A stretch of DNA of 56,038 nucleotides, counting the filler, from Ionaspis alba (Eukaryota), in assembly GCA_964255285.1 (NCBI GenBank). It is 3 parts of 3 records of this genome, joined end to end, with 100 filler letters (N's around TTAATTAATTAA, not from the genome) between each part and the next. Parts side by side here need not be neighbours in the genome. Positions count along the whole stretch, not along the records: positions 18,815 to 37,468 come from CAXUUL010000286.1; 2 more parts are not named here. The stretch is one strand, 5' to 3'. Numbering within the stretch: position 1 is the first letter of the stretch; every line of letters starts with the position of its first letter. The position numbers and the translations under genes were made by a program. Of the stretch, positions 18,815 through 53,380 are shown one piece after another. The notes under the pieces were generated by a model. That model made no database searches and was not told the origin of the DNA. It saw only the letters and a program-made list of their open reading frames with translations.

Positions 18815-20237
18815 TGAAGAGAATGTCAGAATGAGCGAGATTATCGAATTTCGATACTCGGAAATTCGCGGCGAGCCAAGCAAACTGTTGTGTTACTTCG
18901 ACCAGTTGCTCCATGGAGCCTGAGACATGAACAACGGTAGTGCTAGTATTCTTTTCCTTCTGCTCACCATTCAGCTCGATGGAGATACTTAACCCTAGTC
19001 TCCTAGGTGTCGCTAGCAAGAAAATTCAGTAACTGGTGGAATAATATTTATTCGAATAAATACCAGCTTTGCTATGTCTGATAGCTGCCTCTAGCGCTGC
19101 CAGCGTTGTTACGCTGGTCTGCGGCCAATGCTCCTTCATGTATTCTCCACACATTGTTGCATATGCTTGTGATTCAGTCCCAGTGACAGTGAGCAAAGAG
19201 GTAAATTCCCAATCGTCATCCAACTCTTGCTCGCAGCATTGCGGAAGTTCCCATGCGACATGCAGAACGGTGTAATGCGGGCCGAGATGTTTAGTCCTAC
19301 TTACCATTTCTTTCTCGATATACTGGAGGACATTAGGAGATACCAAGAGATACATTTTTTGTCTCATCGACGCGAAAGCCCTGCTCTTTTTAATGTTTGT
19401 CATCTCAGTCGTCCAATTCTCATCCTTATACTCGTTGTCTCCATCCTCTCCGTTCAAGGTTTTGTTGCTATGGTCAGCAATTGTGCGTTGAACCAATTGC
19501 TCTGACCGCTCCAACAGGTTACGATGTGTAAAACTGGTGTCTCCACCTATTCGAGAAGAAACCACGCTATCTGGTCGTCTTTGGCGGAGCTGCATCACCT
19601 GCGGATGACCTTCCACTTCCAAGTTCTCCGCCTGCTCTGCGACATCGCTATCTTTTGTGGTAAGAACTTCTCGAATGCCAATTGCAAGCTGTTTTGCATG
19701 AGATCTAACGAGCCGGGGAATGCAAGCGTCTAAGTTTAGATCCTCTTCATCCAAAAGCTGAGTAGAAAGTGCGCTAATCAAGGGCACAAAACACCGCTCC
19801 AGCCTGCCAGCGTCGAAACTATCGGTCCTTGAAGCCGCCGTGTATGACGGCCGAAGCACTCCATCGTCAGCAAATAACAACGGCTACTTTCTAACGACAG
19901 CTAGGAAAGAGCAAGAAGAACTTGTTTTCTCAAACTTCGGTTTCGGAGAACCAGTGATAGAATCGTCCTGCAGATTATCCGAAATGAACCGAGACGTAAC
20001 AGTAACTGGATGAGGTCTCGATTTCTGTTTGACTGATGATGACCCTGGGATTTACTGTGGAGCTTGTTGACGTTTTGCAAAATCTGCCTGCCTGTCTGCT
20101 TCATATGGGAGAGACTGGTGTGATTCGCAATAAGAACATCTTATATGCTGACATATCACGCACCTTGGTTCCAAAACTATTATTTTCGGACCAAAATGGC
20201 ATTTACACCACCAACAATATTGATAATCTGTTGGCAT
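18815..20237 (-). pseudogene. Large uncharacterised fungal protein (N-terminal zinc ribbon plus conserved blocks seen in Pfs-associated fungal proteins), two in-frame stops, truncated by the gap
   Basis: ORFs 20237-20052 and 19880-19026 share one frame, separated only by TAA (20054-20052) and TAG (19886-19884). Blocks LFADDGVLRPSY, WELPQC..LLTVTG..AYATMCGEYMKEHWP and, after intron 19063-19013, GSMEQLVEVTQQFAWLAANFR. Confidence 0.6.
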
Positions 20238-20915: not shown

Positions 20916-23852
20916 CTACAGTATCTCAAACTCGAGTCTCGACATCGCCAGGATATCCAAGCTCCCCACCTCCTCAATCCCTTCGAACCCCATTTCCATT
21001 CCAAAGTGATCAATATCCCAGTCCCAGTCCGTCCCGTCCTGCGACCAGCGCCCTTCCAACGGTGGAACATGAATAGCAAAAGCTGCGGCTCTTGGTCGTT
21101 CCTCGTCATCGTCCCCAGACCAATAACCTTCATCCTCCACTCTCCAGGTAGCTTCCGGAATGGCCTCGACATAACGCTCGGCGTAGCCAACCATGTTTGC
21201 AGGATGCAAGGCTAGCGTATCGCTTGTGCGCCGACTGGGTAAGAAAGATGATGCGCCATCAAGGTCGCGTTGCCATAAAGGCGGAGCGTTTCGCATTATG
21301 ACATCTCCGTCGGGGTCCTCGAGGTCAACGACTGCGCCATCTCGGAGCACAGCCCTCTTTCTTGCTCTTCTCATATATCCACTGTTGATCTGCCATGCAT
21401 AGGCAATTCCGTGACCTACGAAGGCCCAGACCGTGGAGTGACTAGGCGAACTCTCAATGGCGAGGTCTACCAATCCTTCAGCCTTGCCGATCTCGACCCC
21501 TCTCAGCCTGATGGGTTGAGCCTCGTCATCCGAGAGATGTGTCACTGTTGTGGCATTGTACTCATCCTTCCATGCCTCTCTATCTCCATTCCCATGGTGA
21601 GCGAAGACATCCGGTGGGATGCAGAAAAGCCAGATACTGGAACCAAACCCTGCAACGACTCTGACTCCCCAACTAAGCTCTCCGCCAACGGCATAGACAC
21701 TCGGTAGCATCCTAAGAGCTGCATCGCCAAGCTCATACGTGTCGGCGTTGGGACCCAATAGCGTGAAGCGCCTCCTCAGCTTCCTGGGGCCACCACTGGG
21801 AGCATCGTTGCCTAAGCAAAGACAGCCGCTGATTGGATCAGTGAAGAGAACATGGTAACCATCACTCAGCGGCACAGCCTTGAAGTGATCACTGCCCTCT
21901 CCTGCCCTCTCTTCTCCACCCCGCCACCCCTGCGAACTCAGCCCTTCCCATCTTCCGCCTCTAGATGCAAAACGGCCGCTGAGACCTCCTTTCTGTCCAG
22001 GGCAGCCGGCACTGCTGATCAAGCGTAGTTTCTTTGCACTGTCAACACCTACTCTGGGGGGCAAAAAATAAAGAAAGTCGCTTGGTGCTGTCAAGGGAAA
22101 CCAGCGATTGAGGTCTTGTCCTGTGAGGGCGTCAACCCAGTGCAGCTCGATACCAGCCGAGCAGCCGAACGCAACACAGCGCCTTTGAGGGCAGATTGCG
22201 ACACTGAGAGGAGGATCGTCGGGTGAGCACAGAGCGCGATAGATACTTCGAGGACCAGTCTCGACCGGAATTCCTGAGAAGTCTTCCGAAAGTACTGGAG
22301 AAATTGGTGACATGGAAAAATTAGGATCGATAATTGGTTGGAATGCTGCCGCTCGGGCGTGACGGGCTTGTGATCTGAGATAAGACTGAGCGGAGAGATG
22401 TTCTGCTTCAGAACGAGCTTGCTCTGTAACAATCCTCTCGCCCGAGTTTTGAGACGAAAGGACCGAAGCTCGATAGTCCTGTCTCTCCCAACAGTCAGGT
22501 TCTGCTCGCTGACTCGAAGCTGGTCGTCCGTAAGTCAAAGGGTTGATATCACAGACCAGTCCCATCCGGTCATTTAGTAGTGCAGCGACGGCGTACCGCT
22601 GAGACGAAGTATCCATGCTGACTGCCAAGACCCGACGAGGACAGATAATGCTGGTGAGAGGCTCAAGATGACCACCATATGGGCATTGACGCTGATCGAG
22701 ACTCGATAGTCGGTAGACGTAGATAACGCAACCCTCAGCAACAAGCACAAACTTGCCACACACACTAACTGTGAAGTGAAGCGCTGCACCATCGTCATCA
22801 GGAGAAGCCGCATACCCATTACCAAGCTCTGAAAAATCAGTTTCCGAAGTTAGCACGAGACTTGACGCTGCGACCAACTTCTGGTCAACCCCATTGCCAC
22901 CCCAACCCGGCCTCAATGAGCACTCCACCGCCAATCGCTTGCTCATCGCCCACTCCTCCCCCACGACACTCTCCCTCTTCCCCAAACTCCCTCTCTTTCC
23001 CACACCCAAAACCTCCAAATCAGCCTCCCAAGCGCTCCACCACCCACCAACCCTCAACATCCTCCCGAGCACCCCTGTCTCCAACCCGGCCGCAAACCAT
23101 CCCCTACAAACCCTCCTCGCAGCATCAAAATCCCTCGGCCCAAGATACCCCCACACAAGCATCAACACTTCCGTCGGCAGCCTCCTTGCCGCTCTTACCT
23201 TCACAGGCCGCACACACGTCAGCGCCGCAGACCAGCACCGACAGATGAGTCGCATAGCTAGATAGCTCTCGCCATCCAGGAAAGCAGCCAAACGCGCGAA
23301 GATCTCGAGTGGGAGTTCGGGCGCATGTCTGCGACACGGTCGAAACTCTAGCAGTGCGAAAGTATCGCGGTGGCCGCCGAAGCGGTGGGTGTCGATGGGG
23401 GAGAAGGTTGAGGAGCGGGTGAGGATTTCGGAGAGACTGGTGTTGATGTGGTCGAAGGGGAGGGGTTCGAGGAGGGTGTAGTCTTGGGCGGGAGAGGAGG
23501 ACGCCGTGGAGTAGGTGCCGTGATCGATCGAGCTGGGACGGGCGAGGCGCCGTGAGGTTGCGCGTTTGATGAGGGCGTTGGGGTGGAGATTGGTTGTGTG
23601 GGTGCGGGGCCGACCGCGGGAGTGGGAGTCGGGTGAGGCGTGGATTTGTGAGAAGGATGTTGGAGATGTGGGGGATGGTGGTGATGGAGAGCGGGAGGAG
23701 GGAATGCTTGGCCAGGTTGGGCTTGGGGCTCGAGGTCGGATTGGGGTATAGTCGCTAATGGCCGGTAGTGAAATTGGAGGCTGAGTTGGTATGACTTCGT
23801 GATGGGAGAGTGTCCAGCGTACGTGTGCGGGCGCATCATCGTGCGAGGCCAT
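20916..23852 (-). CDS. F-box protein with two tandem F-box-like motifs and a beta-rich C-terminal region, single exon
   Basis: LPLEIFARLAAFLDGESYLAMRLICRCW and LPTEVLMLVWGYLGPRDFDAARRVCRGW; later blocks SVAICPQRRCVAFGC and GIELHWVDALTGQDLNRWFPL. Start placed at ATG 23852 (alternative 23984). Confidence 0.82.
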   Translation of the reverse strand: MASHDDAPAHVRWTLSHHEVIPTQPPISLPAISDYTPIRPRAPSPTWPSIPSSRSPSPPSPTSPTSFSQIHASPDSHSRGRPRTHTTNLHPNALIKRATSRRLARPSSIDHGTYSTASSSPAQDYTLLEPLPFDHINTSLSEILTRSSTFSPIDTHRFGGHRDTFALLEFRPCRRHAPELPLEIFARLAAFLDGESYLAMRLICRCWSAALTCVRPVKVRAARRLPTEVLMLVWGYLGPRDFDAARRVCRGWFAAGLETGVLGRMLRVGGWWSAWEADLEVLGVGKRGSLGKRESVVGEEWAMSKRLAVECSLRPGWGGNGVDQKLVAASSLVLTSETDFSELGNGYAASPDDDGAALHFTVSVCGKFVLVAEGCVIYVYRLSSLDQRQCPYGGHLEPLTSIICPRRVLAVSMDTSSQRYAVAALLNDRMGLVCDINPLTYGRPASSQRAEPDCWERQDYRASVLSSQNSGERIVTEQARSEAEHLSAQSYLRSQARHARAAAFQPIIDPNFSMSPISPVLSEDFSGIPVETGPRSIYRALCSPDDPPLSVAICPQRRCVAFGCSAGIELHWVDALTGQDLNRWFPLTAPSDFLYFLPPRVGVDSAKKLRLISSAGCPGQKGGLSGRFASRGGRWEGLSSQGWRGGEERAGEGSDHFKAVPLSDGYHVLFTDPISGCLCLGNDAPSGGPRKLRRRFTLLGPNADTYELGDAALRMLPSVYAVGGELSWGVRVVAGFGSSIWLFCIPPDVFAHHGNGDREAWKDEYNATTVTHLSDDEAQPIRLRGVEIGKAEGLVDLAIESSPSHSTVWAFVGHGIAYAWQINSGYMRRARKRAVLRDGAVVDLEDPDGDVIMRNAPPLWQRDLDGASSFLPSRRTSDTLALHPANMVGYAERYVEAIPEATWRVEDEGYWSGDDDEERPRAAAFAIHVPPLEGRWSQDGTDWDWDIDHFGMEMGFEGIEEVGSLDILAMSRLEFEIL

Positions 23853-24415
23853 GATCTGGTTGTGCTGGACGGCTGTTGGCGTAGCTGCATCGGTTGTGAA
23901 CGGAAAGGCGGTGACGGCGTTGTTTTCGGTGGGAATGCGGACGTAATGGATGCCTATGGAGCGAGCGGGAGACCCAAGGGTCATGATATGGATAGAGTCG
24001 GTCTCGAAAATTGTTACCACGGGAGTCGCCGGAAAGAGAGCAGGTGAAGGAGGTGGAGAGTCGTGACCGGCGACCCCGCGAGAGAGGAGGATTTGGGAAG
24101 ACGTGGTTGCGGTATTGTAGTCTCAGACTGGTGGAAAAGAATGCAATCTAGAATTTCTAGTGGTACAATAGTGAAAGAGTGGTTAGTAGGTGGAGATGGA
24201 TGCGCACCGATGGTGCACAGCGAAACGGTTGCAAAAGCATTGACGTTGAATATATGTTCTTTCTGCCGCTAAGGAGTAACTGTAGAGGAAGCAGCGACTG
24301 ATATACCATGCAAACATACACAATAGAAACCTCTCGGACCGGTATCTCAAAAGGAAGTCACAATAAACGCCCGCCACGCGCTATGCAGAATCGTAGTGAA
24401 AGACCAAACCATCAT

Positions 24416-27159
24416 CTATACATTCTCGTCACCATCTCCATTTGCAGGATGACCTGAACCATTTGGCCCCTTCTTAGCGAGCCACACATCCTCCAGCGGA
24501 ACAATCAGATTCGGATTGATAAACCTCAGCCCCGTCTCCTCGCTGTCATCCACTATTCTACCGTTGCGAGTCTCGCTTTCATAGCGCGGCTCGTTGAGCG
24601 ATGGAGCATCGTCATCTTCGTCGCGGTAGAGACTGCGTAGAGCGATGAACTTCATCAATGGCTCGTACGTGCGACGATAGAAGATGGCAAACCAGAAGGT
24701 ACCGATGAGCAGTGGTAGAATGATGACAGCTCGTTTGTATGCCCCTCGCAAAGCCAGCTGGCCAGCCATGGCAAGTTGGAAGACCAGGATTCCAACGACT
24801 ACTCTGTTACAGATAATCGGCCAAGCTCTGCCTGTCGAGTGCTGGCGGTGATCCATGGCGTAAAGTAGCTGGTATTTATGGACAAAGCTACCAAAGAGAA
24901 AGTAGACCAGTCCGAAAAGAGTCACGAGTTCCGATTTCGGAAGAACGCTATAGACAATACAGATAATGAATATGAGTAGAGTCTGAGGTAAGTAGAAGCC
25001 GTAGCTGAAAATCGGAGGGTGTCCAAGCTCGGCATGGTCTAGAGTTGGGATTAGCATACTTAAATCTGATACTGCTGACCAACATCTGACCTCTAGGTGT
25101 CTTGGCTCCCATCAAGCCGATGGGATACATGAAAAGTGGACCAAACTCCAGAAGTCTGAAAGGGAAGAGGCCTAAGCCTTGTAACACGATGAAATTGACG
25201 TAGAATGGCGCAAGCCGGCCTAACGATTCTGCCAGGATACCTGTGATCCTAGGCAGATCTTTGAGCTTCTCTCCCAGTTCATTGTAAAAGGTAATGAAGT
25301 TTGATACCGTGCCGAACACCGTCAGCAAAACGAAGAGGTTGAAAAAAGTAAAGAAGAAGTTCTTCGAGATGAGTGACATCTCGACATCACTTTGCGATAT
25401 CATTCCTTGGAGATTGGCAAGCCCTGGGAGGTCAATTTAGCTTCTTGTGGACCAAATCTCAGGTTTTACCCACAATCGTAAAGATATGGCACAGCAATTG
25501 TCAAGAGAGAGACTACCAGGGTAGGCAGAGACGTCTGGACCAAAGATTTGGCAAGCGGACTCTTCGATAGCGCATCGGCGAGCGGCGGGAATACTCGGCG
25601 AATCGTCTCTAAATTGAGCAGACCAGCAACTGGAAGCAGAACAACAGTCCAAAGCACGGACAAGATGGCGATGACGAATGTAATAACCCAAGCTCTCGTC
25701 ATCCGCGTTGAACGAGGAAGATATGTATGCTTCCAGACGACGTCTACCGGAGCTGGCGCCGCCTTGGCCATCAGCTGCATAGGTTCTGGATCTATGATGG
25801 CTTGGACGGCCATTTGCTGGATGAAGTATCAGCTACATGTCTTTGATAGATTTACCTTTGGGCACTTACACAGGCGGCAATCGAATCCATTGTCACAAAC
25901 GCGAGAGGCGTTGGCGGATAATTCTTTTTACGAGCTGCTTTAATCCTCTCGTCCAGGTTCTTCAGCTTCTCCTCGTAGTAATCAATAGCATCTACTCGAT
26001 GACTTTGTAATCCCATGAAGCCGTACCAGATTCTTGTCGTAGGTCGATCTCGTTCATATGAAGAAACGTGCGCCCGTCCGGTATGGCGGCCACTCAGGAG
26101 GCCAGCTTGTTCGTCGTCGCCATCATCGTCGCCACCTGGCGGAGGAGAGGAACGTCTAGACATGAGTAATTCCTCGGGGCTTTGCTTGACTCCTCCGGAT
26201 CCAAGATGAGCTGTCCAAGCTGTTTCGAGATTTCTCAGTACTACCATGCGCTCCTTCATCAAATCGTCCAACTCTTTCCACACCTTACACAGCATCACGC
26301 TTTCGACCTTGCCGATCTCTAGATTCTCAATCGTCTCCTTGATCTTTTCCTCATTCTGCAGATGCGGGGGTATCCCCGAGAGCTTGATTGTGCGGTCTGT
26401 CAGGGAGGAATGAGTGCCCAGGTATTTCTGGCGAATGCGAATTATTCTTTTCGTCTCTGAAACGATCATTGACATAAGGACACAGCTGAAAAGATAGACG
26501 AAGACTACATATATCCAGAGAAAGTCCGTGGACGTTTCGAAACCCATATCCCAGGATCTAACGTGCAGTTCTCCGGACCGAGTCTCATTGTGCGGAACTG
26601 TGCCATTTTTTCCATCATGTTCGCCACTTGGAAGGCCATCGGATGTGTCGAAATTCTTATGTACCGGATATATGACTGTAAGTGAGAAGAAGAGAACGAA
26701 TGCGAGAAATTTAACGGCCATCTTGAAGAATGCTAAAAACTAAACCACAGTCAGTGCCTCGATCGACCAAACTCAGACCCAGGGCATGCGTCAACTGACC
26801 ACAAAGGCATCTAAACCGGCAGAAGCAAGGACTTCATCTTCTGTAATACTGTATAGTACAGGGATCCATCCAAGAAAGGTGTTTGGTAGATCAGGCAACT
26901 TGGAAGCCGAACTTCTTTGCCTCTTTCGTGCTGCGTACAGGGAGGTCCATCTTGGTCTGAGGATCTATCAGCTCACCCGAGGATTAGCATACGAGTATTT
27001 GTCGGCCATCACATTGCGACTCACGCAAAAGGCAATGAATGCGCTTAGGCCCAGGACAACCGATATTGTAGCTTGAGTTGCAAGGTCTCTTTGATCATGA
27101 GTTTGTTTATCGACGCCACCATCCAGCTTGTCCTTGTGCGAAGCCCAGAAGTCATCCAT
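24416..27159 (-). CDS. CSC1/OSCA/TMEM63 (DUF221, RSN1-like) stress-gated cation channel, 6 exons (27159-27025, 26964-26800, 26739-25870, 25816-25474, 25423-25091, 25038-24416)
   Basis: Motifs ILRPRWTSLYAAR, EVLASAGLDAFVFLAF, AFVTMDSIAACQMAVQ, APAPVDVVW, KYQLLY and HSTGRAWP. All five introns are GT-AG and frame-consistent. Confidence 0.93.
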
Positions 27160-27396
27160 ATTGTGAAGCGACAATGGCAAGAGAGGTGGAGAACGGTCGG
27201 TATCGTAATGCGATCATGAAAGTTGTCGTTGTTGGAGTTGGAGCGTGACTGCCTTCCTCAAAAAAATGGCTACGTAGTTGCGAGAGCTTGATTTGATCCG
27301 CCTGTTTCTAGCGGCAGATCTTCATCCTTCATTGTCAATATCGAGTTACCCCCACGCTAAGGTCTACAGCAGCGTTTCCCCATATTTAGAGCCAGT

Positions 27397-28815
27397 ATGG
27401 AGTCATCTAGTAATATTATCGAGCGGGTTCCAAACCTTCATATAGATATCTGCACTTGCATTCCACGAGAATTGCACACGGAGTTGGTAGGATTTATTAT
27501 TGCGAAGAATTCAATCCATATAAGAAGCTAACGTCCATCACCAGGCCGCAGCTGTGGAATCGTACTTGAATACGCTTGACACACTGCCAACCAAAGGCAA
27601 CGTCCCTCTTCCACGTAAAGGTACCCCTCCTTTGCTGTCCTCCTCTCATCTGACTTCGCCATAGCGGATTTGGAGACCAGATACAATATCGACTTCGTTC
27701 GGGTGAATCGTTTTGGGAGACCCGTCGACATAGATATCGAAATCCACCCTAGAGAGCATCGTCTGGTTTGCAAGACCTTCTACCTGCGGAACCTCCTAAT
27801 AGACCCCTTCAAGGAGCTTCCGGCTGACACGAGATGCATTGCGCTTCCGTCGAAAGAAATCGACGACTTTGCCTTATTCGATCGACCTTTCGCTTTCGAT
27901 ATCTTTGCAAGCCTTGTGAAGAAGTTGCGTTTGCCAAGCACGATCGACAACCTTGCAGCAGCATCTAGAAAGAATGGTGACTGCATCGTGGTCCGTGGTG
28001 CATACGGTAGTCATAAAACGAGATTGTGCCTGAGTCTAGCACAAAGTCTTTCCATTCGCTTCTGCCATTTATACCGGTCGTTCCAAGCCATCGAACTGGA
28101 CGCTAAGGACCTGATCCGTAACCGAGAGGAGCTGGCGTGTAAACTCATAGAGGACACCTTTATAGCTATCGACCGAATGGTGGAACGTGGCAACTCGACG
28201 ATGTATATCATCCTGGTCAAGAACCTCGACCAGTTGAACTATGCACCATTGCTCCAAGTCGCGAAAGGAACGACTTGGATCAGTGAACGAGGTAATGCCA
28301 TTACAATGTGTACAGCCAGTGAAGAGTTGGCCCATGACGTTATCAAGTCACTTTATACCGATTTTGACCAATGGAACGTTGAAACACCGAACACAGAGAG
28401 AGTCTATGGATATCTTCGAGATCTCTACTCTTACTTTCCAGAGAGGTTCCGTGATGTGCCTATTCCGGGAATGCCAATAGATGAACTTGCAGAAGCCAGT
28501 CCGTATGAGAAGGGCGAATTTCCGGTATGGGATCCGTCAGGGGAAGGGTTGAGCAAACTCTCGGAGGACGAAATGTCTCTGGCTTCAAGGCTCGTGAACG
28601 TTGCTGGTAGGGCTAAAGAACACAACTGGCATGAGATTGAGCGTATGGTCCATCTTTCAAGGAGATTCATTGACGGTGCCTGTTCAAGAGATCAGTTCGT
28701 TAAAGTCCTCGAGCGAGGTATGAGCTGGCTGCACAGCGGACGAACATCTCCAATGCCTGAGCTTAGTCGGATGGAGTCATGGCTCTCAAATATCGAGCCT
28801 GGGAATCCTTACTAG
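27397..28815 (+). CDS. Highly diverged Pch2/TRIP13-like AAA+ protein with degenerate catalytic motifs, 3 exons (27397-27486, 27545-27620, 27665-28815)
   Basis: CIVVRGAYGSHKTRLCLSLAQSLSIRFCHLYRSFQAIELDAKDL...KLIEDTFIAIDRM...YIILVKNLDQL parallels the Pch2/TRIP13 stretch [24 protein letters not shown]...Y...LIEINSHSL...KLV..MF..I...VFVLIDEVESL. Two frame-preserving introns link it to ATG 27397. Confidence 0.72.
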
Positions 28816-29245
28816 GGCCATATAACGACGTCACGAATGCAGATGCGGACAATGATCGCAGACAGAATTCCTGTCTTGTACTGCATTTCGCTGCTTTGAG
28901 GAAGGAAGCAGAGAAGATGGAAGAGATTGTGAGACTGTCTTCTGCATAACATGTATGATATAGAAGAGATGTTCATCAGGCGTATACGGTTAGGATTACC
29001 GAGTATCGAATTTCAAATTATTGAAGAACATTCACGTAATCCCAGCGATTGTGTGGGCAGCGTTGCAGATATCAGATGAGTAAGTCGCGTTGTAAGGATG
29101 GAAATGATCTCGGTGCTGGAAACAAGCTTTACAGAACCTATGCTAACCATAACAGTATTAGCTCGATATTTTATAGAAAGGTTTAGCCTCTCGAGTCGCC
29201 GAGCTCGATATAAAATGTTCAACTGCTCGATTTGACATACATAAA

Positions 29246-30999
29246 ATGGTAAGAGCCTTGAAATCATTATGCTACGTTCATCGCATGCTGATTGGGGCTA
29301 GGCCGCTTTCAACCCTACTCAGATATTCGGCGACGATGTCACAGAAGAGAAGGGAGAAAATGCGCGTCTATCCGCGTTCGTGGGAGCTATCGCCGTGGGA
29401 GATTTAGTCAAGAGCACGTTAGGACCAAAGGGAATGGACAAAATATTACAATCAGCGTGGGCACAACTTGTCTCTCTTTGACGACTTTCCCTTACTAATC
29501 CACTTTAGATCTACTGGTGAAGTAATGGTCACAAATGATGGAGCCACGATTCTCAAAGCCATAGCCCTTGACAATGCTGCCGCCAAAGTTCTCGTCAATA
29601 TCTCGAAGGTGCAAGACGATGAAGTTGGTGACGGGACAACCTCCGTAACAGTCCTAGCAGCCGAACTTCTCCGGGAAGCCGAAAAGCTCGTCGACAAGAA
29701 AATCCACCCCCAAACCATTATTGAAGGCTATCGGATAGCCAGCCATGCCGCCCTTTCTGCCCTCGAAAAAACAGCCGTCGACCATAGCAAAGACACAGCC
29801 GCATTCCGCAAAGACCTTCTTGCGATAGCCCGCACGACCCTTAGCTCTAAAGTCCTCAGTCAGGATCGAAACCACTTCGCTGAGCTAGCCTGCAACGCCG
29901 TCCTACGGATGAAAGGCTCCACCGACCTTACACACATTCAGATCATCAAGAAAGCAGGCGGCAAGCTCGTCGACTCTTACCTCGATGAAGGATTTATCCT
30001 GGACAAACGGATTGGCGTGAATCAGCCGAAACGGCTCGAAAACGCCAAAATACTCGTCGCAAATACAGCTATGGACACGGACAAGATCAAGATATTCGGT
30101 GCCCGCATCAAGGTCGAGTCGACGGGGAAGTTAGCGGAGCTAGAGAAAGCGGAAATAGAGAAGATGAGAGGCAAAGTTGAGAAAATCAAGGCACACGGGA
30201 TAAATTGCTTTGTCAACCGACAGCTCATCTATAATCGGCCAGAGCAGCTGTTCTCGGATGCTGGCATCATGTCCATCGAGCATGCGGACTTTGATGGTAT
30301 CGAGCGACTCGCGCTTGTCACGGGCGGAGAAATAGCATCGACGTTCGATCATCCCGAATCTGTCAAGCTGGGTCATTGCGACCTGATCGAGGAGGTCATT
30401 ATCGGCGAAGACACCCTGATTAAGTTCTCCGGTGTGGCCGCGGGCCAAGCCTGCACGATTGTCCTCCGCGGTGCCACGGAGCAGCTGCTGGATGAAGCAG
30501 AGCGTTCTCTACATGACGCGTTGGCCGTGCTGTCTCAAACTGTGCGGGAGCCAAAGACCACTCTTGGAGGGGGCTGTGCGGAAATGGTGATGGCCAAGGC
30601 AGTCGACCAAGCCGCAAGGAACGTCGCAGGAAAGAAGGCCATAGCGGTAGATTCATTCTCGACAGCTCTGCGGCAACTGCCGACCATCCTGGCGGACAAC
30701 GCAGGGATGGACTCGAGCGATCTGGTGGCGAGATTGAGAGAGGCTATTTACAAGGGGATGACGAGTTCAGGGCTCGATCTATCGACGCCCGGTGGCGGGG
30801 TTGCGGATATGAGGGAATCAGGTGTGATTGAGAGTTACAAGCTGAAGAAGGCGGTTGTCTCTTCAGCTTCAGAAGCTGCGGAGGTAAGTTCTCCTCGATC
30901 CCTCGATCTACGAGCGCTTCAAATGCTGATCTGAGGTAGCTACTACTGAGGGTGGATAACATAATACGAAGTGCGCCAAGAAAACGGGAGAGGATGTGA
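29246..30999 (+). CDS. CCT2: T-complex protein 1 subunit beta (CCT/TRiC chaperonin), 4 exons (29246-29248, 29302-29456, 29509-30883, 30940-30999)
   Basis: [76 protein letters not shown] and [15 protein letters not shown]. Confidence 0.97.
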
Positions 31000-31935
31000 G
31001 GATGTCTAGTCCGTGGCGACTCAAGTAGAGGCAGCTGCAGCACCGAACGGTGTTTTGAGCATAGACTGGCGTCCTGGAGCGACGGCAGAGCTTAGATTTG
31101 GGCCTGATGGTAGATGCAATACACGATCAGTCGTGAGTAACAAACCATACCCAAGGAGGCCGGAATACTGTGGCCAATCATTTGAAAAACAATTGGCTCT
31201 CTAAGTGGGGAATGACAAGAAATCCTCGACCTAAATAAGCCAGCGGCATGACCCACCACTATCACTATGAAATTTAGCTAACTGTTGCACGTGCGTTTCA
31301 TGGCTTCGGTGTGGGATATTTATGTCACCCGTCTCAACATGATCGATCACTCGTGTACCAGAAAGGATCTCCCGCAAAACAACGGAATCTGACCAAAGCG
31401 GCCGATTTTCATATTAAGAATGATTTTTCCGTTGCCTTTTTATTAATTCTTGAACCGATCAAATGGCGTTCTGGATCCCAAAACATCCAATTCAGTGGTT
31501 GAAATGTTTCGTTATGAAGTTTCTCACAACCGCAGCTTTGATCATCGGTCATATTCGATTTAAACAGCACTATGGAGATATCATGGGACTTGTGGTAAAT
31601 TGATAATATGTGAATACCTTCGATACATTCTAACAATGTATCATGAAGTCTTGGCATATTAGTGGGTTAAATTCCCCACGCCTCGCACGGTTGCCCATAT
31701 CGATATGCTCCAAAACCCCGCAGTACCCACGAGCATCACTCACTCCCTCGTTCCGCTGAATGGCCTCGTCTTCAATGTAGATTGAGTTGCTCCACTGTCC
31801 CCTCAATGGAACAATGAGTCATAGATCACCGTTGAAACGGCACGCAATTTCAAGAGCAGAGATGTGAGGATAGCTGCGCGAAGCTACCCAATGCTTCGAA
31901 AGGAAACCTACGGGTCAAAAATACGTAGATTCACC

Positions 31936-32952
31936 ATGTTTACACCACGTAACACAACAAGCAATTCCTTTCAAACCCTCAGCAACATCCGACTCGAAGC
32001 CGCTGGACTTGTCGCCCTCGCCGACCTGACCTCAATAGCCAAATGGACCGCCATCACGGGCACCGCATCATGGCTCGATGTCTTCTTTCTCGCACCGGGC
32101 ATGCACCGGCAGCAATCCGCGTCCGAGCTCAACGGTGGAGAATATCCCCCCACAGCCGCAATGACCACGGGGTATGTCTTCCGCGTCGAGAACCAAGCTA
32201 CCGTTCGCTATCTGCAGACAATGGGCAAGCCGGGACATCTTGTCAACATCTTCGTGGAAGCAGAGCCGTCCAGTGCTCCGCATCCGGGTCTGGGTGTTCT
32301 GATAAAGCATCTCTTTAGCAACCCATGTATGCCCGCAGCGTTCCTCTATCTCCTAGGACCTTCCGCGACCATGGCTGCGCTTGTAATGCTCGGTCTGCTG
32401 GGCGATTGGTGGGCGATGGGTATCCTGGGGATGCTGATGGTCGCCCGACTGTGCAACACCATCGTTGTGCGGCGACGGAGGGAACGCGGATGGAAGGGCG
32501 CACTCGAGCCCGGCGTCCGGGGCGATCTGCTAGTGCTTGTGAGCCAGGATCGATGGTTTCGGATCCGGGGACTGGTCGACGACCTTAAAGCCGTTACGTC
32601 GGGACAGTGGCTCCGGGAAATGAGTGGGCCGGAGGAGTTTGCGGTGAGTCTGGCTACGGTCTTGGTCTTTGTGGCGGCAGCGTTGGCGACTAATGTGTCG
32701 ACGGAGGGGAGTTTGATCATTCTATGCTTGCTGCTTGTGTCGGCGGGGATTTTGGGATTGTGCAATAGTATGGCGACGAGGCTTCATATGCATGGGCGTA
32801 TTATGAGGGTGGAAGGGCGGATGAAGAAGTACTTTCGGCGGACGGACTTGGTGGATGAACTTGTGAGGGAATCGAAAAGGAGGGATTGGGCGGAGCGATT
32901 GGGGATGGTTTCCAATCCAACAAAGGATGGTGGGAAAAGCGCTCTGTTATAA
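31936..32952 (+). CDS. Uncharacterised fungal multi-pass membrane protein (about 338 aa), single exon
   Basis: Long ORF with an ATG in good context (CACCATG) and two pairs of hydrophobic helices. Blocks GLVALADL, LAPGMHRQQ, WKGALEPGVRGDLLVLVSQDRW and DDLKAVTSGQW look conserved. Confidence 0.8.
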   Translation: MFTPRNTTSNSFQTLSNIRLEAAGLVALADLTSIAKWTAITGTASWLDVFFLAPGMHRQQSASELNGGEYPPTAAMTTGYVFRVENQATVRYLQTMGKPGHLVNIFVEAEPSSAPHPGLGVLIKHLFSNPCMPAAFLYLLGPSATMAALVMLGLLGDWWAMGILGMLMVARLCNTIVVRRRRERGWKGALEPGVRGDLLVLVSQDRWFRIRGLVDDLKAVTSGQWLREMSGPEEFAVSLATVLVFVAAALATNVSTEGSLIILCLLLVSAGILGLCNSMATRLHMHGRIMRVEGRMKKYFRRTDLVDELVRESKRRDWAERLGMVSNPTKDGGKSALL

Positions 32953-34282: not shown

Positions 34283-35608
34283 GATGAGGGACAAGTCACA
34301 GAGGTATCGGGAACTATATCAATCGAGATCCTCAAGGCAGAGTGACACCAATATTGGAACAAAAAGTGAAGAGCGACAGACGAGGTGATACACGGAGTAG
34401 ACTTGTAGAAAAGTAGACATGATACAGTGTTCTATTCTTCTATCTTGAACAGCCCTCACTATCAAGAAGGTTCCAAGTCCAGAATTTGCATTGCGAACAA
34501 CCGCATCCGGAAGGCACAAGCAGGGGTGCCTCGTTGATTCTCCGAAGCCTTGTACTGCAATATTGCGGACCACACTCTTGTAGTGGGCGTCAAGTTTGAT
34601 CTGCATATCGCTCCGCCGTCGCTCCGCCAATTGCTGTACGGCATGTGATTTGCAATGGTAGAGGACGTGCCAAAGTATCAAGGACTTCTTTGGCAGGTGG
34701 TTTGAGCGCAGATGTGATATGCAGTCCTCGCCAAGAGAAAGCAAATAGAAAAATGATGCCCAGAATGTGCGGTACCACAAAGTGAGAGCCGGGCCAGGAT
34801 GACGAATCTTGGTCGAGGGAATTGAAAGAAAGTACAGGGAATCATGGCCGGCATCAAAGCGTAGTGTAACGACTGCATGTGCCCTGTGGGGTATGTTCAA
34901 CTGGGAGGAATATCCATTGACGCCAATTTGAATCCTACAGGGCCGCGTAAGCAATTTATGGTGGTAATATCTCCTTCGCAGGGAGTCCCAGAAGCTGTTG
35001 CCTACATCTGTTGAAGATGCAATACTGTTGGCCAAACCGATTGAACAGAGCTAGTAGATGCCCTGGTAGCTGCGGCTAGTCCGAGCACGGTTAAAGAAGC
35101 TGGGGCGTCCCCAGTCCGGGGCGAAACCGCAGATAATGCACAAGATGTTTATATGCGAGTTTCATGCTATGCCCCTAGCACAACTCCCCCGAGGCGATGG
35201 TGACTGAAAGCGATCTTTGATGGTTGGCTACGGGCCCCCTTCATCTTCCATGCTCACTACTTCGCCCAGACGACCTGCGCGGCTCAGTACGTATGTAACG
35301 ATGTGATCACATGAGGCAAATATTTGTGAGGCTGCCATTGCTGCTGATCAGCCTTTACTGGCTCTGCGATTGGCAGAACCATTGCGAATGGACTGCTTGT
35401 TGTGCTGCCTCATGTCAGGGTGATCAGCCATTGGAACTCCAGTCATGATATGGAAGCGGCCTTCCCTTCGTCTTCATTTCATTACCGCCGATTTTGGTAT
35501 TCGCCTGCCACTACGACTGTACCATCACACTCACAAGGTTCTATGTGACCGAGACTTCATATAGCCAAAGATCAACGACTGCTTATCTCCTTTGTATCTT
35601 GAACAGCC

Positions 35609-36938
35609 ATGAATTCTATCCTGACCTCACTCCTTGCATCAGTCATTCTTCTCCTTGCTGGAGAGTCTCTCGCACATGGAGATGATCCCGGCAATGGCAT
35701 GCCTGAAAGACGCGAGTCTTCGATCCAAGGTCCTTGCCATCACTACTGACAGCTTCGTAGCATCGAACGCCTCCAACATCACCTCTCTAGATCCTCAGTA
35801 CTTCACCGATCTAGGATCCAAAAGAGTCAAGATTGACTACGGACCTTATCCTATTTTCCCCAGCAACGTCCACGATGGCATGGCAACATATTACGAACTT
35901 GCTGTCAGGAAACCGTGCTCAGATTGCATCATCACATGGATGCAGGCTGGACTCGAGTATCCTAACGGCACGTATGCCAACGCCAATACTGGTATGTGGC
36001 TTCACCACATTCTCTTGGTGAACACAGAGAGACAGTCTTCTCTTTGTGGGTTGCAGTACCGAGGTGACCGCTTCTTTGCTTCGGGCAATGAACGTACTGC
36101 TGTAAATATTTGTGTGAACGGGTGAGGTCGTTCCTTATCACAAAGCTTTCAAATTGCGGAAGACTAACGGGTCTCTAGCACCGAGAAAGCTGGCTACTAC
36201 GTCGGACCCAACGACAACTTCGCCATGCTTGTTGAACTGATGAACGAGAACAAAGAGACTCGAGACGTCGTACCAACCATCACCTATGAATTCATCCCTA
36301 TTGTACCACCTGCCTTCAACAAGGTGGCAACGGTCTGGCTCGATATCGGTGGCTGTGATGGTTCAGAAATGCCAGCGAAGAATGGAACATTCGAGTATTC
36401 TATGGAACCGGCATGGAAAGCCAATTTCTCGGGTCGAATCACCACAATGATTACCCATCTCCACGATGGCGGCACTCATCTCGAGGTGAAGCAGAACAAC
36501 AAGACTATATGTGACAGCATGGCTGCTTATGGGCAGTCGGCGGGCTATAACGAGTCCATGAACAGTGGTATGGATATGAGTGGCATGGACATGGGTATGG
36601 CAATGACGCATATCTCATCTATGACAACCTGCGATATGATCGGTCAAGTCAATGTGGACGACGAATGGTCCGTGACGGCTCATTACAACATGACGGCTTA
36701 CACGCCTATGATGAGTAGTAACGGCACATTGGAGCCTATCATGGGCATTGCTCTCTTCTATGTTGCGAAAGGAGAGAATGCTACGACGAATGGCACTGCT
36801 ACGAGCACGGGAGATGGGAGTTCTGTTAGCGGGGCGGCATCGACGACGTCACCGACGGCAGTATCGACCGGGTCGTATGTTCAGATCGGGACGTCTCTGC
36901 TGGCCTTGTGTTTAGGCCTACTTGCTTCTTTACTGTGA
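35609..36938 (+). CDS. Secreted, probably GPI-anchored protein with copper type II monooxygenase (PHM/DBH)-like ligand motifs, 3 exons (35609-35696, 35761-36121, 36179-36938)
   Basis: Signal peptide ending SLA|HGDD; motifs WLHH, RFFASGNERT, HLHDGG, HISSM, AHYN and PIMGI; Met-rich MNSGMDMSGMDMGMAM; Ser/Thr-rich stalk and hydrophobic C-terminus. The exon 1 donor is inferred. Confidence 0.75.
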
Positions 36939-41491: not shown

Positions 41492-42502
41492 TCAAACCCA
41501 GGTGACATGATTCCAGTGCCCTGGTATCCTTTGACGACACTTCTCACAATCAGCTTTGAACCCCATACTGAAGAGCACCTTTCTTTTCCCCCCTTCTTTG
41601 ATCTTGAGCGCGCTCAAACCACGATCAACATCCACGGCGCCCCGCCTCGTGTTACGCCACCCGCTTTCCAAGGAGGCATCGGGGGCCGGGGATAGGGGCG
41701 TCATCATGTTGGTGTCGCCGTCGGAAGGGAAATGGGCGGTGGATGGCGTGGCACTCATGTCAAGCTTTCGTAGGAGAGTGTGCGTGGTGCTGGTGGGAGA
41801 TGCCATATCTTCGTCCTCCGAGATGGGCGAGGGAAGGCGCCGACGTCGGTGGAAGAGGTCGTGTTGAGTGTCGTGATCGAATCTAGATTTGCTCGGTTCC
41901 GGTATCGAATAGCTTGTCGGAGTAGTCATAAGCGTATCATTCGAGACGATGTTGAAATGGCCGTAGATAGGAGTTGGAATCCGCGTGCTATTCTCCGAGA
42001 GACGTGGGACTTGAGGAAGCGCAGCGTGCGGCGGCATTCCGACCGGATTCTGCGTAGCCGGTTGCCAGTAGTTTGGCTGTGCAGAGTGTTCGTCTAAGGA
42101 CCAGGGTGGAAACTCGGTATCGTCCATAGCGAGATCGGTGTCCTTGTCCGTAGGAAGATAAGGTAGAATATGGTATGACGGCGATGGGCCGTAGCGCATG
42201 GGGGATGGTTCGTCGGATTCGTCTTCTGAAGAGTCGGTGGGAGTGAGAACGGGAGGCTTGGAGATTTGTTCTCGGTGCTGAGAGAAGAGGGACGTATGTT
42301 TAGTTGTGGGTGAAGTGCGAAAAGGAAGAGTGCGTGGTTTCTATAAAGATATTAATAATTGCTATTGATAACGTTTCTGGATTCTGAGATGGAAACCATG
42401 GCTCACCTTGCGGTCTAGTCTCAACTTTTCGATCTCATCCTCATCCTCTTGCCTCACTCTTTTGCCAGAGCTCAAAACACTGCTTGAGAATATCGCTGCC
42501 AT
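41492..42502 (-). CDS. Hypothetical low-complexity protein with C-terminal CxxC...H..H motif, 2 exons (42502-42407, 42340-41492)
   Basis: Frame-consistent GT-AG intron 42406-42341. Motifs RLPSPISEDE and SMGFKADCEKCRQRIPGHWNH. Confidence 0.75.
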
Positions 42503-45922: not shown

Positions 45923-48900
45923 TCACCAGAAAGAGCACCAACCAATATAATGCTGGCACAAGTTCTCGACACTGGTCGCCTGTCCAATGAGCTTAGCGAC
46001 CTGCTCCTCAACGTCCAGTTCGCGCTCCGGCCGGAAATCCCTTCCAGTCAGTTTTTCCTTCACTCTAGCTAAAACCTGAACGGCTCTAGCATTCTGGATC
46101 TCTCGGTTGTCGTCCCCACCATTAGCTGCCTCGGCCGCCGCAGCCGCAGCACTAGATCGGTTCCGCGCACGGTAAGAGCCGCCTCCTGTACTTCTCGTTG
46201 AGGTTTGAGCACCCTCGAGCTCGCCCATGAGGGATTGACGACGCGCCGAAGGGTACGAGGGCTCGGGTGGAGAGTCGCGATTTGTCAAGCGCCAGTTGAG
46301 TAGCGGATCGTGAATGAAGGCTTCAAGGACGGCCATGAGAGATTCCTTGTTGTCGCGGATGACCCGCATAACTGCCTCGCTGGAGATTTTGTAGGAGCCA
46401 TCAATGTTGGAGACTTCCATTGCGAAGGTGAGCATGCGGGTGAGACGGAACGGGACACGTTCTGGGTATTTGTCACGGTGCATGGCCACTTCGAAACAGT
46501 CACCAAAGTCGATATGAATGATCTTACCAGTTACACGATCGAGCATCAGGTTTGAAGGGTGTCGGTCGCCGAGACCTAGAATATAGCCCACCATGGACAT
46601 GACCGCTAAGGAGCGTGTGTAATTGGTACGACGCTCGAGCCAGGACTCCGATGATTTGGACTTGAGCCAGAGCACGCGGTAGAGATCTTTGCCTGTAGTG
46701 TTGTCCATGGCATAGCTGAAGACCTCAACCTTCTGCATGAGAGTCAAGTTGTCATAGTCCGGAGCCATCTGGAGCATGATTCTATGCTCAATGTTGAGTA
46801 GAATGCGTCGATTCTCACGATAGTCCTTGATGAGATTATGCAGAGTATCGCTATTAGGCACCCATCCAAGTAATCCCGAATTCTGCGATAGCGGAATGGC
46901 AGGGAACTTCTGTATACTAAGATGGCGCTTGAAACTCTCGGTATCATTGTTCAGTAGAGTGTTGACAAGACCAAACAGCTGCATCACACGCTCATCCTGA
47001 CGGATATCTTCGTGCCCCTTCAGTGCATACGTATATGCCTGTCCGTCACTTCCCTTCAGAGTCATCTTCCGCGGGCGCTGTTTGGAAGGTATGACGGTTA
47101 AGACCTGATCAAAGCTCAAGATTCGAATAACAGGTTTGCCGCTCTGATACGTCCCAGGCACGGCCAATTCCAGATCGCGAGCCTCTTTCAATGAAGGTGA
47201 AATATACGTGAGATCAAGTGTCATGAGCTGAGAGAGCTGTTTAGCAATCCGACGGAAGACAGAATAGTAGAGATCCCAAGCTTGATTAAGGTCTCCCACC
47301 TCTTTCGTTCGACGATAAGTATCGCACCACTGTTTGGCTTCGTCGAGATCTCGACCAAACGCCTGCGCAAAAGATATTTCTCGAAGTGTTTGAGGCCCCT
47401 AGGCAAGTTAGCGGGCGGCCTATGATTAGTGAGAGTAAAGTAGGTACTTACTGCAGCTAGAAGCTCGTGCAAGGGAGCCAGAGTTGCAAACATACCATCG
47501 ATGTTGTGATCGCCAAAATACCTAGGCAGAAAGTCAGCAGGCGGTACCTTATTGATGAGAATAAGGGATTTATACAGTCGTGATGCTTCTTCTAAGCCTT
47601 CGTGCCAGAGCTCATGCCACAACACCGCAACACGAATCAATTCTCTACTGACCAGCTCCGCCTGCTCAACCAGGACTGGACTGTGTTTGCTCAGAGACTG
47701 CATGATTAAAGTCGCCGATTGTGCACGGCGAGGTACATTGGATTTCATTGCCACTGTCAACGGGTACACCAGAGCTTGGGGATGTGCCTTTCCCACGTCA
47801 CCAAGTAGTCGATGAATAGTCCCTCTGACTCGGGCATTGGGCTGGTTTATGCGTGCAATGAGCTGTGGAATGACTTCAAGCCATGTATCTATGCTGACTT
47901 CAGGGAATCCAGCGGTAACTGCTGCGTTCACATCGTGATCTCCACCATGGGCAAACCATAGGGTCAGGAGACGTAGTGTATCTTGTAACGAGCTGGATGT
48001 CGAAAGTGAAATTGATTTGATGAATCCTTGGATAGCAGGTACGACATGATCATTGATGATATTCTGAGGCAGTGAAGCGGTTCCACGGTCTGCTTGGGAG
48101 GTGATGGCGGTGACCACTTCGAAATTGGCAAGCGCCCATGCGTGCCATGCTTTATAACCGTCAGGGTTATACTGTGTCGCGGCTGAATAAGATGCTAGAA
48201 CGTCATGGACGTGGCCCGACTCCCAGTCCCCTCGTTTGAGCCAGGTTTGCCACTCTCCTAGCTTGAGGTAGCACTTGGCTAGGAGGGTCTTCATGTTCGC
48301 AACCTCGACAGACTTCTGCTTGTTGGCGTTTGGGTCATAGAAGGCATTAAGTGGGTTTGGTTGGTTCCTAGAAATCATAACAGCCAGCGAGGCCGCTTCA
48401 GTCGCTAATTGTTCAGAGAGAACCACAGTAAAATCCCGCAGCTTTACCAAAGAACTTTGATATTTGCCTGTGGTCCATGCGTATTTGAGCTGGGCGTAAG
48501 TTACCTCCGGAATAGATGAGGTGACCGTTAAGGGATCCGCATTGGGATTCTCGAGCTGTATGTTTTGTAAGGATTTGAGAGATTTCTCTGCCAATCCAAT
48601 GCGGCCTGACTTGCGGCAGAGATTCGCAAATTTGATCCACATATCGATGTTCTCCTTTGGTGTCAGAACGAGAGCCCGAACTTTGAGCATGCGCTGCCAG
48701 GTCTCGACGTTCCCTTCACAACCCTTCAGACGCTCGTTCCACGTAGCCCGCATTGTCTCCTGCCTGACCGGATTTCCTTCACTCTTCTTGTATGTAATGA
48801 TCTCTTCCAACTCAGCCAGCATCTGCACCCGTACTACGACACTGTATGCACGAGTGTAGGACTCGCCCAGTAAAGCACTCAGCTCTGTATCGAGACCTGC

Positions 48901-51900: not shown

Positions 51901-53380
51901 CCAATCTTTCGCGAAAGCTGGAGTGGGCAGAATCCGATTTGGAGGGCTACCAACTGGCCGGTATGGTCGTGAGGCAAGAACAAGGCTTAGAAGATCGAGC
52001 AATTTCTCCTGAATCACTGGTTTGATAGGAGGGATCTTATCAACCATCACCACAAGTGCTCTCACCAAGGAGTCGCTCAATCCACAAGCAAACATAGGAT
52101 CAATCAAAGCGTCCATATACTTGGTCAACGTCTGATCCGCAGCAGAGCAGAGCATGCTGATGAGCTCAAACACGGCACCGTCCTTGTTCTTGCTTTTCCT
52201 AGTAGCTCATCAGTCAATTGATAGAAGAGGACAGTTATGCCGTGGATAGCCTACGCTCTAATACTCAATCCTTCACGAACGGAGATAATGATGCCATTCA
52301 AGTATGGGGTGATTGCGCCTTCGACATGGCTAGCGACTTGGCCAACTGCGAGAAAAGCGGCACTTCGTTCCTTATCCTTTTTGACCAGCCCTTGCAGAAA
52401 TGTCATGAATCTGTGAAGATATTCGAGAGAGAACTCTCTGGGCGCAAAACGGGCGAGAGCTGGAATCATGACAACAGTCTCGGAGCGGATCCTAGGCTCC
52501 CGATGGTCCTTCAAGCGCATCACAATATCACAGGCTTCTCGAAAGTGGGCGTTCATAAACATGCCACTATGAAGTATCAGTTCCTTGATGACAAGAAGAG
52601 AACCGTGTATCGATTCGACACTGTTGACTTTCAAGCCCTGCACTGCCTCGACGTGCATTCGAGGAAACCACTGTTGGCGAACCACAGTATCGCGGGCAGC
52701 CATGACTTCGAAACATTGTGCTACAGCTTCAGCTGCAGTCTCACGAATTAGCACTTTGGGATCACGAATGCCAGTCCATATGCTATCCAGAATTTGAGGG
52801 ACGTAGGTGAAGAGGAGCGTCGGAGAGTTGTGAGCGAGCTCACGAATGATGAGTACGGCAGCAAAACGCCGACTCTCTTGTCCAGGTCTGTCAGATTGCA
52901 GCCATTCCAGAGCGGACTTGACTTCGCTTTCCACAAGGTCTGCTGTGAGAGCTCCACCTGGAGTAGCAAGGTGGCCCAATGCGCGAGCTGCATAGATGAG
53001 AACCTCATTATCATTACTGCGCAAAGCAGCTCGTAGATATCCCGAAAACCGTGTTGTTCTTTGAGCTGCATCATCACCTTCAAAGGTGATGAGTTGCTCT
53101 ATAGCAATAATGCCTCCGATCTTTTCATTCGTTTCGTTGCTGGTGACAACCAGACTGGCAACGCGATGGTTGAGGCTGGAGTAGAATTCTTGAAACTTGT
53201 CTGTTGAGAGATCTGTCGAAGTGTTAGTTATACAATCCTAGTATCATCAGGATACTTACCTCTTTGAGCAAGGTGAACCTGATTTAATAGCTCATGGCAA
53301 GCTCTCTGACGAGCGTCCTTACTTCGTCCTTTGAGGTCAAGGAAGATCCGGTTCAGTGCATCAGCACCAAAAGACGCCAT
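45923..53380 (-). CDS. TOR: TOR serine/threonine kinase, 7 exons (53380-53260, 53212-52255, 52198-51825, 51772-50886, 50835-47576, 47521-47452, 47398-45923)
   Basis: HEAT repeats, FAT domain ([10 protein letters not shown]), FRB ([18 protein letters not shown]), kinase ([30 protein letters not shown]) and FATC ending [12 protein letters not shown]. Confidence 0.98.

Follow-up and report, generated by a model that had tools for sequence, protein, structure and literature searches.

TRIP13/Pch2 is regarded as an unfoldase powered by ATP, and the HORMA-domain switches that it resets operate in meiosis, the spindle checkpoint and DNA repair. Here we describe a gene at positions 27397..28815 (+) of a 56,038-nucleotide stretch of DNA from Ionaspis alba (assembly GCA_964255285.1; the whole stretch, made of three joined genome parts, is referred to as the window), whose predicted product appears to keep the layout of TRIP13 and has lost nearly all of its catalytic and substrate-gripping residues. 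We favour, with a probability of roughly 65%, the reading that it is a lineage-restricted, TRIP13-derived pseudo-ATPase that is maintained in a small clade of ascomycete-type fungi and acts by binding, not by remodelling.

The determinants of activity in this family have been probed by mutation. Ye et al. 2015 (PMC4439613), whose numbering of functional residues is used throughout, report no measurable ATPase kinetics for PCH-2 T186A, N300A and R385A. In the same source nucleotide binding is absent in Walker A, sensor-1 and R385 mutants, and the substitution W221A abolishes the conversion of MAD2.

Descent from Pch2/TRIP13

The original prediction, made from the sequence of the window alone, had read the locus as an uninterrupted three-exon frame with kinship to Pch2/TRIP13. 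Its coordinates and frame proved right: script-based splicing yields a coding sequence of 1317 nucleotides (nt) with 438 codons and no internal stops, and the motifs it had listed (LPSKE, KTRLCLSLAQSLSIR, IELDAKDL, KLIEDTF, PNTERVYGYLR and SRLVNVA) are all found in the translation. The proposed kinship is borne out by several types of search. In a phmmer comparison with the PDB, the top five of 74 listed sequences are TRIP13/PCH-2 proteins (E 1e-4 to 2.3e-4), with human TRIP13 and C. elegans PCH-2 first; residues 106-191 of the exon 3 open reading frame (ORF; P0001, 27667..28812 (+), 382 amino acids) align with residues 174-258 of TRIP13/PCH-2, and the first match beyond this group is an unrelated decarboxylase at E 0.014. 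A profile built from the family described below retrieves only TRIP13/PCH-2 from the PDB (E 2e-7 to 9e-7), and the best profile matches thus do not fall in another AAA+ clade, an outcome that the original prediction had named among those that would refute it.

Profile-profile comparisons extend this result. Using hhalign, a match to three TRIP13s reached a probability of 97.6% (E 4e-12) from the LPS..DDF linker to Walker B, and with greedy extension against 116 TRIP13s the probability rose to 98.0% (E 2.3e-13). This second match is colinear along nearly the full length, pairing residues 13-423 of the spliced protein with residues 3-428 of a 430-residue TRIP13, and phmmer with the spliced protein aligns residues 13-249 with residues 5-243 of an oomycete TRIP13. 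The linker itself, LPSKEIDDF (27844..27870 (+)), joins the N-terminal domain to the AAA+ module, corresponds to LPAKEFDG(M/I)W of TRIP13 and is conserved in the alignments of the family. A HMMER search over 1.84 billion representatives returned 14 matches, namely the window ORF, two relatives, one repeat protein and ten AAA/TRIP13 proteins or fragments, and a language-model search with the whole protein placed TRIP13 clusters at 0.95. The repeat protein, P0005 (700 amino acids in tandem repeats; residues 289-328, E 1.9e-6), was rejected as a repeat artefact, its similarity being made up of nine weak stretches with an i-E of 0.25 or worse each.

The similarity escapes standard domain annotation. 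Pfam assigns no family to P0001 at E <= 10, generic AAA included, nor to its relatives P0003, P0016 and P0017 at E <= 1; the basidiomycete TRIP13 P0141, used as a control, matches TRIP13_N (PF23563), AAA (PF00004) and the TRIP13 lid (PF23242). NCBIfam and PADLOC likewise assign no family to the protein, and a single-protein word-index homolog search found only the window's own ORF. Taken together, the resemblance to TRIP13 is beyond chance, and judged from its sequence the gene is a descendant of Pch2/TRIP13.

Loss of catalytic and pore motifs

The original prediction had located a degenerate Walker A at 27997-28020 and a degenerate Walker B, had found the pore loop and the arginine finger unrecognisable and had seen a shortening after Walker B. 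Alignments with TRIP13 and with the relatives agree on each of these points. Walker A reads GAYGSHKT (27997..28020 (+)) in place of GPPGTGKT, with His for the Gly that precedes Lys and with Lys and Thr kept; the relatives have GPHGSKKV or GPHGSKKA, in which Thr is replaced by Val or Ala, and the consensus GxxxxGK[ST] is absent from the window protein and the relatives. Walker B reads ILVKNLD (28210..28230 (+)) in place of VLIDEVE, with D252 changed to Lys and E253 to Asn. The relatives read VLVKDID here, and neither LVKNLD nor LVKDID conforms to the consensus hhhhDE. The window protein and all five full-length relative sequences have Lys at the position of the Walker B Asp (Lys185 of P0001), where it may fill the former Mg/phosphate site.

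The substrate-gripping and inter-subunit elements are altered as well. The equivalent of pore loop 1 is RNRE (28117..28128 (+)) where TRIP13 has SKWF, so that W221 becomes Arg and F222 becomes Glu, and the alignments show DKRD or HKRD in the relatives. Following Walker B, about 19 residues of TRIP13 are lost at 28243..28251 (+), seen as a 19-residue gap in hhalign and as 29 alignment columns in MAFFT; the lost segment contains ARKAALSGSEPSDSIR and is also gone in the relatives. The sensor-1 strand is CTAS (28309..28320 (+)) instead of TTSN, with N300 replaced by Ser (Cys in the relatives), and the arginine-finger region is SLYTDFD (28348..28368 (+)) instead of AFVDRAD, devoid of Arg at R312 or elsewhere, as is GLYSNHG in the relatives; the alignments of these two regions are of low confidence, yet they agree with each other. 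In the lid, the small AAA+ subdomain at 28387..28812 (+) with four to five helices in the model and the alignments, the column of the sensor-2 residue R385 (motif NWHEIE) holds His by MAFFT and Trp by hhalign, the two alignments lying one column apart, and the relatives carry NWREIE, with Arg at or beside that column.

Because the Walker A, Walker B, pore-loop, sensor-1 and arginine-finger sites have all changed at once, we strongly infer that the protein is unable to hydrolyse ATP, and nucleotide binding is likely lost too. Substrate threading would also be lost, since the aromatic pore loop is gone. The pseudo-ATPase of TRIP13 origin that had been predicted is therefore supported, and the case is strengthened by relatives that share the degeneracy in intact frames.

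Relatives and evidence for maintenance

The family comprises the window protein, P0003, P0016 with the near-identical P0018 and P0019, P0017 and the fragment P0004, the relatives stemming from assemblies of the European Nucleotide Archive (ENA). P0003 is 51% identical to the window protein (E 1e-119 in the HMMER search), which shows 49-52% identity to the clade of P0003, P0016 and P0017; within this clade identities are 78-85%. The fragment P0004 represents a third lineage, with 43% identity to the window protein and 54-55% to the clade. The relationship holds across all domains, at 38-62% identity per region between the window protein and the clade. Among contigs of Joint Genome Institute (JGI) metagenomes, 183 stretches matched the search pattern and none was a relative.

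Every full-length family sequence (four distinct ones) combines an open frame with degenerate motifs. To put this into numbers, 166 of the 3942 single-base changes in the coding sequence create a stop, so that about 14 stops would be expected under neutrality and the chance of finding none is about 6e-7, at a neutral divergence of 26% that is an estimate from the 51% protein identity. Conservation is also uneven along the protein: within the clade of relatives identity is 82-90% in the core and drops to 55-72% in a loop rich in Pro and Ser (Fisher p 3e-4 to 8e-8). Given that the relatives share the degeneracy in open frames and that the core is more conserved than the loop, the gene seems to be maintained and not decaying.

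A maximum-likelihood tree places the family apart from canonical TRIP13s with 100/100 support, on a branch of about 9.5 changes per column; branch lengths in this tree are saturated and to be read qualitatively, and the placement within TRIP13 is unreliable. The end branches of canonical TRIP13s measure 0.07-2.1 and the branches within the family 0.003-0.85. The tree contains 13 of 141 proteins (four family members and nine canonical ones), most near-identical plant rows, fragments and a tandem oomycete protein having been left out, and the canonical set of 120 TRIP13s is almost entirely from plants and holds no named ascomycete Pch2. As far as these sequences tell, the pattern is one of a burst of change followed by constraint.

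The loop of the relatives is a peculiarity in itself. P0003, P0016, P0017 and P0004 carry a 75-residue insertion rich in Pro, Ser and Val in the first loop of the lid (alignment columns 301-375), which evolves faster than the core. The window protein is devoid of it; the corresponding site lies near 28465.

Predicted fold

A single-sequence AlphaFold model was uninformative, with a predicted local distance difference test score (pLDDT) of 39. The alignment-based model reached a pLDDT of 72.7 and a predicted template-modelling score (pTM) of 0.70, with 74-91 in the AAA+ core, weak values for the first 50 residues and a disordered loop at 260-281. Its input alignment had 57 rows, seven from the family and 50 from canonical TRIP13s. 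Searching with this model, Foldseek listed only TRIP13/PCH-2 structures among the ten best (E 6e-15 to 6e-12), other AAA+ proteins following from 3e-9. Superpositions with VIA-align gave Z 21.4-23.4 for six TRIP13/PCH-2 entries, with 282-318 residues aligned over model residues 10-364, N-terminal domain included, and Z <= 16.8 for every other chain, bacterial Trip13 leading those. TRIP13 exceeds other AAA+ proteins by 5-6 Z units, a margin due to the additional match of the N-terminal domain. In the model, the layout of TRIP13 is shown to be kept: a predicted N-terminal beta-rich domain, the LPS..DDF linker, the large AAA+ subdomain and a helical lid.

Proposed function and alternative explanations

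If the motifs are read at face value, the protein would not hydrolyse ATP, would probably not bind it and would be unable to thread or unfold a HORMA-domain substrate. Its action would then be stoichiometric, through the surfaces it has retained, and the likeliest role would be that of a binder, an adaptor or a blocker or decoy for a client or partner of TRIP13. By analogy with TRIP13, adaptors and HORMA clients would be recognised by the N-terminal domain and by the top face of the AAA+ ring, and the likeliest partners would be a Hop1-type HORMAD, Mad2, Rev7 or a canonical Pch2. In this the protein would be akin to dead paralogs of other oligomeric enzymes.

Several observations weigh against this binding-only pseudo-ATPase. 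The significant similarity to TRIP13 spans only about 85-130 residues, from the linker to Walker B, and the kinship of the N-terminal domain and the lid is suggested by colinearity and by the model. With the C-terminal half alone, the language-model search returned generic AAA+ proteins, a TRIP13 cluster appearing at rank 25 with a score of 0.89. With an input alignment made up mostly of TRIP13, part of the fold match is given from the start; it speaks for compatibility with the fold and is not independent proof. The neutral divergence behind the expected number of stops is an estimate, as stated above. Walker A of the window protein still has its Lys and Thr, which leaves room for residual nucleotide binding. 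The partners are proposed by analogy, and no HORMA domain was found among the ORFs of the 56-kb window. Finally, both introns are predictions from the sequence.

Three of the alternatives turn on whether the gene is the only member of its family in the genome. It is possible, though not probable, that in this fungal lineage the dead gene has taken the place of the active Pch2 motor as the sole TRIP13-family member. It would then be kept because its N-terminal domain and altered AAA+ surface can still bind a HORMA client (Hop1, Mad2 or Rev7), which it would capture stoichiometrically and without ATP-driven unfolding. According to van Hooff et al. 2017 (PMC5579357), species keep TRIP13 only if they also have HORMAD or p31comet; the TRIP13 ortholog file of that study covers budding yeasts, basidiomycetes and early-diverging fungi, and among the TRIP13 entries listed there is none for Neurospora crassa, Yarrowia or S. 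pombe, all of which are in its species list. For N. crassa the entries listed include Mad1 and Mad2 and no HORMAD, and Sordaria macrospora is described as having Hop1 (PMC11244814). At least one filamentous ascomycete is thus without a recognisable Pch2, and the idea of a sole diverged copy therefore stays alive, though it is not shown. A related proposal, which we regard as unlikely, takes the gene as a fast-evolving sole Pch2 ortholog that is still a motor of an unusual kind, its non-canonical residues handling nucleotide. The ascomycetes without recognisable Pch2 in van Hooff et al. 2017 would fit it, as would the Walker A Lys and Thr that the window protein retains and the Arg that the relatives keep at or beside the sensor-2 column. 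It would have to accommodate the joint loss of the Walker B acids, sensor 1, the arginine finger and the pore-loop aromatics, the appearance of Val or Ala in place of the Walker A Thr in the relatives and the deletion of the segment after Walker B, when single substitutions at several such sites already abolish PCH-2 activity in the experiments reported in PMC4439613. Also unlikely, and a narrower form of the pseudo-ATPase reading we prefer, is the idea that the protein serves as a subunit that poisons or regulates a canonical PCH2 encoded elsewhere in the genome. The dead paralog would co-assemble with this PCH2 or compete for its clients, and would in this way tune or block remodelling. Regulation of active enzymes by dead paralogs is presented as well known in PMC5201418 and PMC3663545, and the alpha-1 helix and the AAA+ core strands, the most TRIP13-like parts, are retained. 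The 56-kb window, however, contains no canonical PCH2 and no second TRIP13-like stretch (tblastn with four canonical TRIP13s; other matches E >= 0.25), and in PMC4439613 E253Q forms hexamers, the wild type is mostly monomeric and assembly depends on nucleotide. Since the nucleotide site and the arginine finger, both at the subunit interface, are lost here, we consider it more likely that the protein simply binds clients than that it co-assembles with an active Pch2.

The remaining alternatives dispute function or descent. Extreme divergence from TRIP13 is what a decaying relic would display, an unexpressed or functionless PCH2 remnant that is open by chance. We consider this very unlikely, as all four distinct full-length sequences are open at 49-52% identity, none of the stops expected under neutrality is present, conservation is significantly lower in the loop than in the core and, in the tree, a long stem gives way to short branches within the family. 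An origin outside TRIP13, either in another AAA+ clade or in an unrelated P-loop fold that resembles TRIP13 by chance, is highly improbable and largely refuted. The silence of the Pfam TRIP13 models and the generic AAA+ likeness of the C-terminal half point in this direction, but all significant sequence matches are to TRIP13 and none is to another AAA+ clade, the match takes in the LPxxxFDG linker, a TRIP13-specific element that precedes Walker A, and the fold comparison separates TRIP13 from other AAA+ proteins by the margin given above.

Gene structure and neighbourhood

The gene consists of three exons. Exon 1 (27397..27486 (+)) has 30 codons, starts with the ATG at 27397 and accounts for the opening strand (NLHIDICTC) of the N-terminal domain. 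It is followed by a predicted intron of 58 nt (27487..27544 (+)), which begins with GTAGGA, contains the branch-like site GCTAAC and ends with CAG. Exon 2 (27545..27620 (+)) measures 76 nt and ends with the codons for TKGNVPLPRK plus one base; the starts of the relatives' ORFs, TIGN(V/I)QLPRK, match this end. The second predicted intron (27621..27664 (+); GTACCC...CTGAC...TAG) is required because reading through it meets a stop. With 44 nt it is close to the lower size limit of fungal introns, and its donor GTACCC is atypical. Exon 3 (27665..28815 (+)) contributes 383 codons and the TAG stop. On the opposite strand of the gene there are only short frames of at most 92 amino acids.

The ORFs of P0003, P0016 and P0017 begin inside the equivalent of exon 2 (..TIGNVQLPRK) and continue with about 18 residues (IAILPHMSVSNAVPAHLY) that have no counterpart in the window protein. 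Probably a prokaryote-style gene caller read through an intron here that sits where intron 2 does, is in frame and has no stop, and for this reason the 493-494 amino acids listed for the relatives are probably not their true lengths.

The immediate neighbours are a divergently transcribed gene for an RSN1/PHM7-type channel upstream and a gene for a TCP-1/CCT chaperonin subunit downstream. Farther away lie genes for an F-box protein, PAP2, DAHP synthase, TOR kinase and an amino-acid permease, all ordinary eukaryotic housekeeping genes. Short introns and gene content indicate that the host is a filamentous ascomycete. The TOR kinase gene (45926-53237 (-)) shows HEAT, mTOR_dom, FAT, FRB, PI3/4-kinase and FATC domains and is split by introns over several frames. 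An open frame of 1068 amino acids at 20919-24122 (-) has an F-box near residues 270-345 and is otherwise without a recognised domain; the peak in G+C content of the window, 0.57 at 22-24 kb, falls in this region. Six further open frames of 243-456 amino acids have no Pfam match at a cut-off of E <= 1e-5, or 1e-3 for some: 300-1667 (-), 19029-19883 (-), 31825-32949 (+), 34322-35050 (-), 36168-36935 (+) and 41495-42340 (-).

Sequencing reads were compared with the region as well. No RNA run is among the sequencing runs listed for the region. At position 28650 a contig from a sequencing run (X1) that spans the entire stretch compared has A where the window has C, which turns the third base of the Val codon GTC into the synonymous GTA and is the sole difference in 4201 bases. 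In a run labelled as another organism (X2), contigs of 151-242 nt at a depth of 2-4 are identical to the window in 26400-30600, and diverged pieces are present of the CCT gene only, so that these runs yielded neither a second allele nor a relative of the gene. This suggests that the sample of that run holds a trace of Ionaspis alba together with the chaperonin of a different fungus.

Significance and comparison with known systems

A TRIP13 descendant kept by selection after the loss of all the catalytic and gripping residues of the motor would mean that the scaffold can serve a purpose other than remodelling, and such a natural binding-only form would help to ask what TRIP13 recognises. A literature search of limited coverage found no description of a TRIP13 pseudoenzyme. 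Should the gene be the sole and dead copy, it would give the TRIP13 family its first pseudoenzyme and offer a case in which nature has separated binding from remodelling. There is also a practical consequence: as the protein escapes all Pfam models, surveys of the fungal meiotic toolkit would score the lineage as lacking Pch2, or would miss the gene.

Among described systems, Pch2/TRIP13 (human PDB 5vq9, 5wc2 and 6f0x; C. elegans PCH-2 4xgu) is the best and the sole significant homolog. Both share the domain order of N-terminal domain, LPxxxFDG-type linker, large AAA+ subdomain and lid, as well as the alpha-1 helix after the P-loop (..LC..LAQ.LSIRF..Y). They differ in that the Walker A Gly, the Walker B Asp-Glu, the pore-loop Trp-Phe, the sensor-1 Asn and the arginine finger are all replaced in the window protein. 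Bacterial Trip13 (Cap6) of the type III cyclic oligonucleotide-based antiphage signalling system (CBASS; PDB 6p8v and 6pb3) belongs to the same AAA+ clade and its AAA+ module superimposes with Z 16.1-16.8. The bacterial proteins are active ATPases encoded beside HORMA and CD-NTase genes, whereas the gene described here lies among eukaryotic housekeeping genes and has no PADLOC match.

Dead members or partners of AAA+ assemblies are known elsewhere, such as LAP1/LULL1 with torsinA and the delta subunits of clamp loaders. Like the protein proposed here, they have an AAA+ fold without catalysis and serve in a structural or regulatory capacity; they belong to different AAA+ clades.

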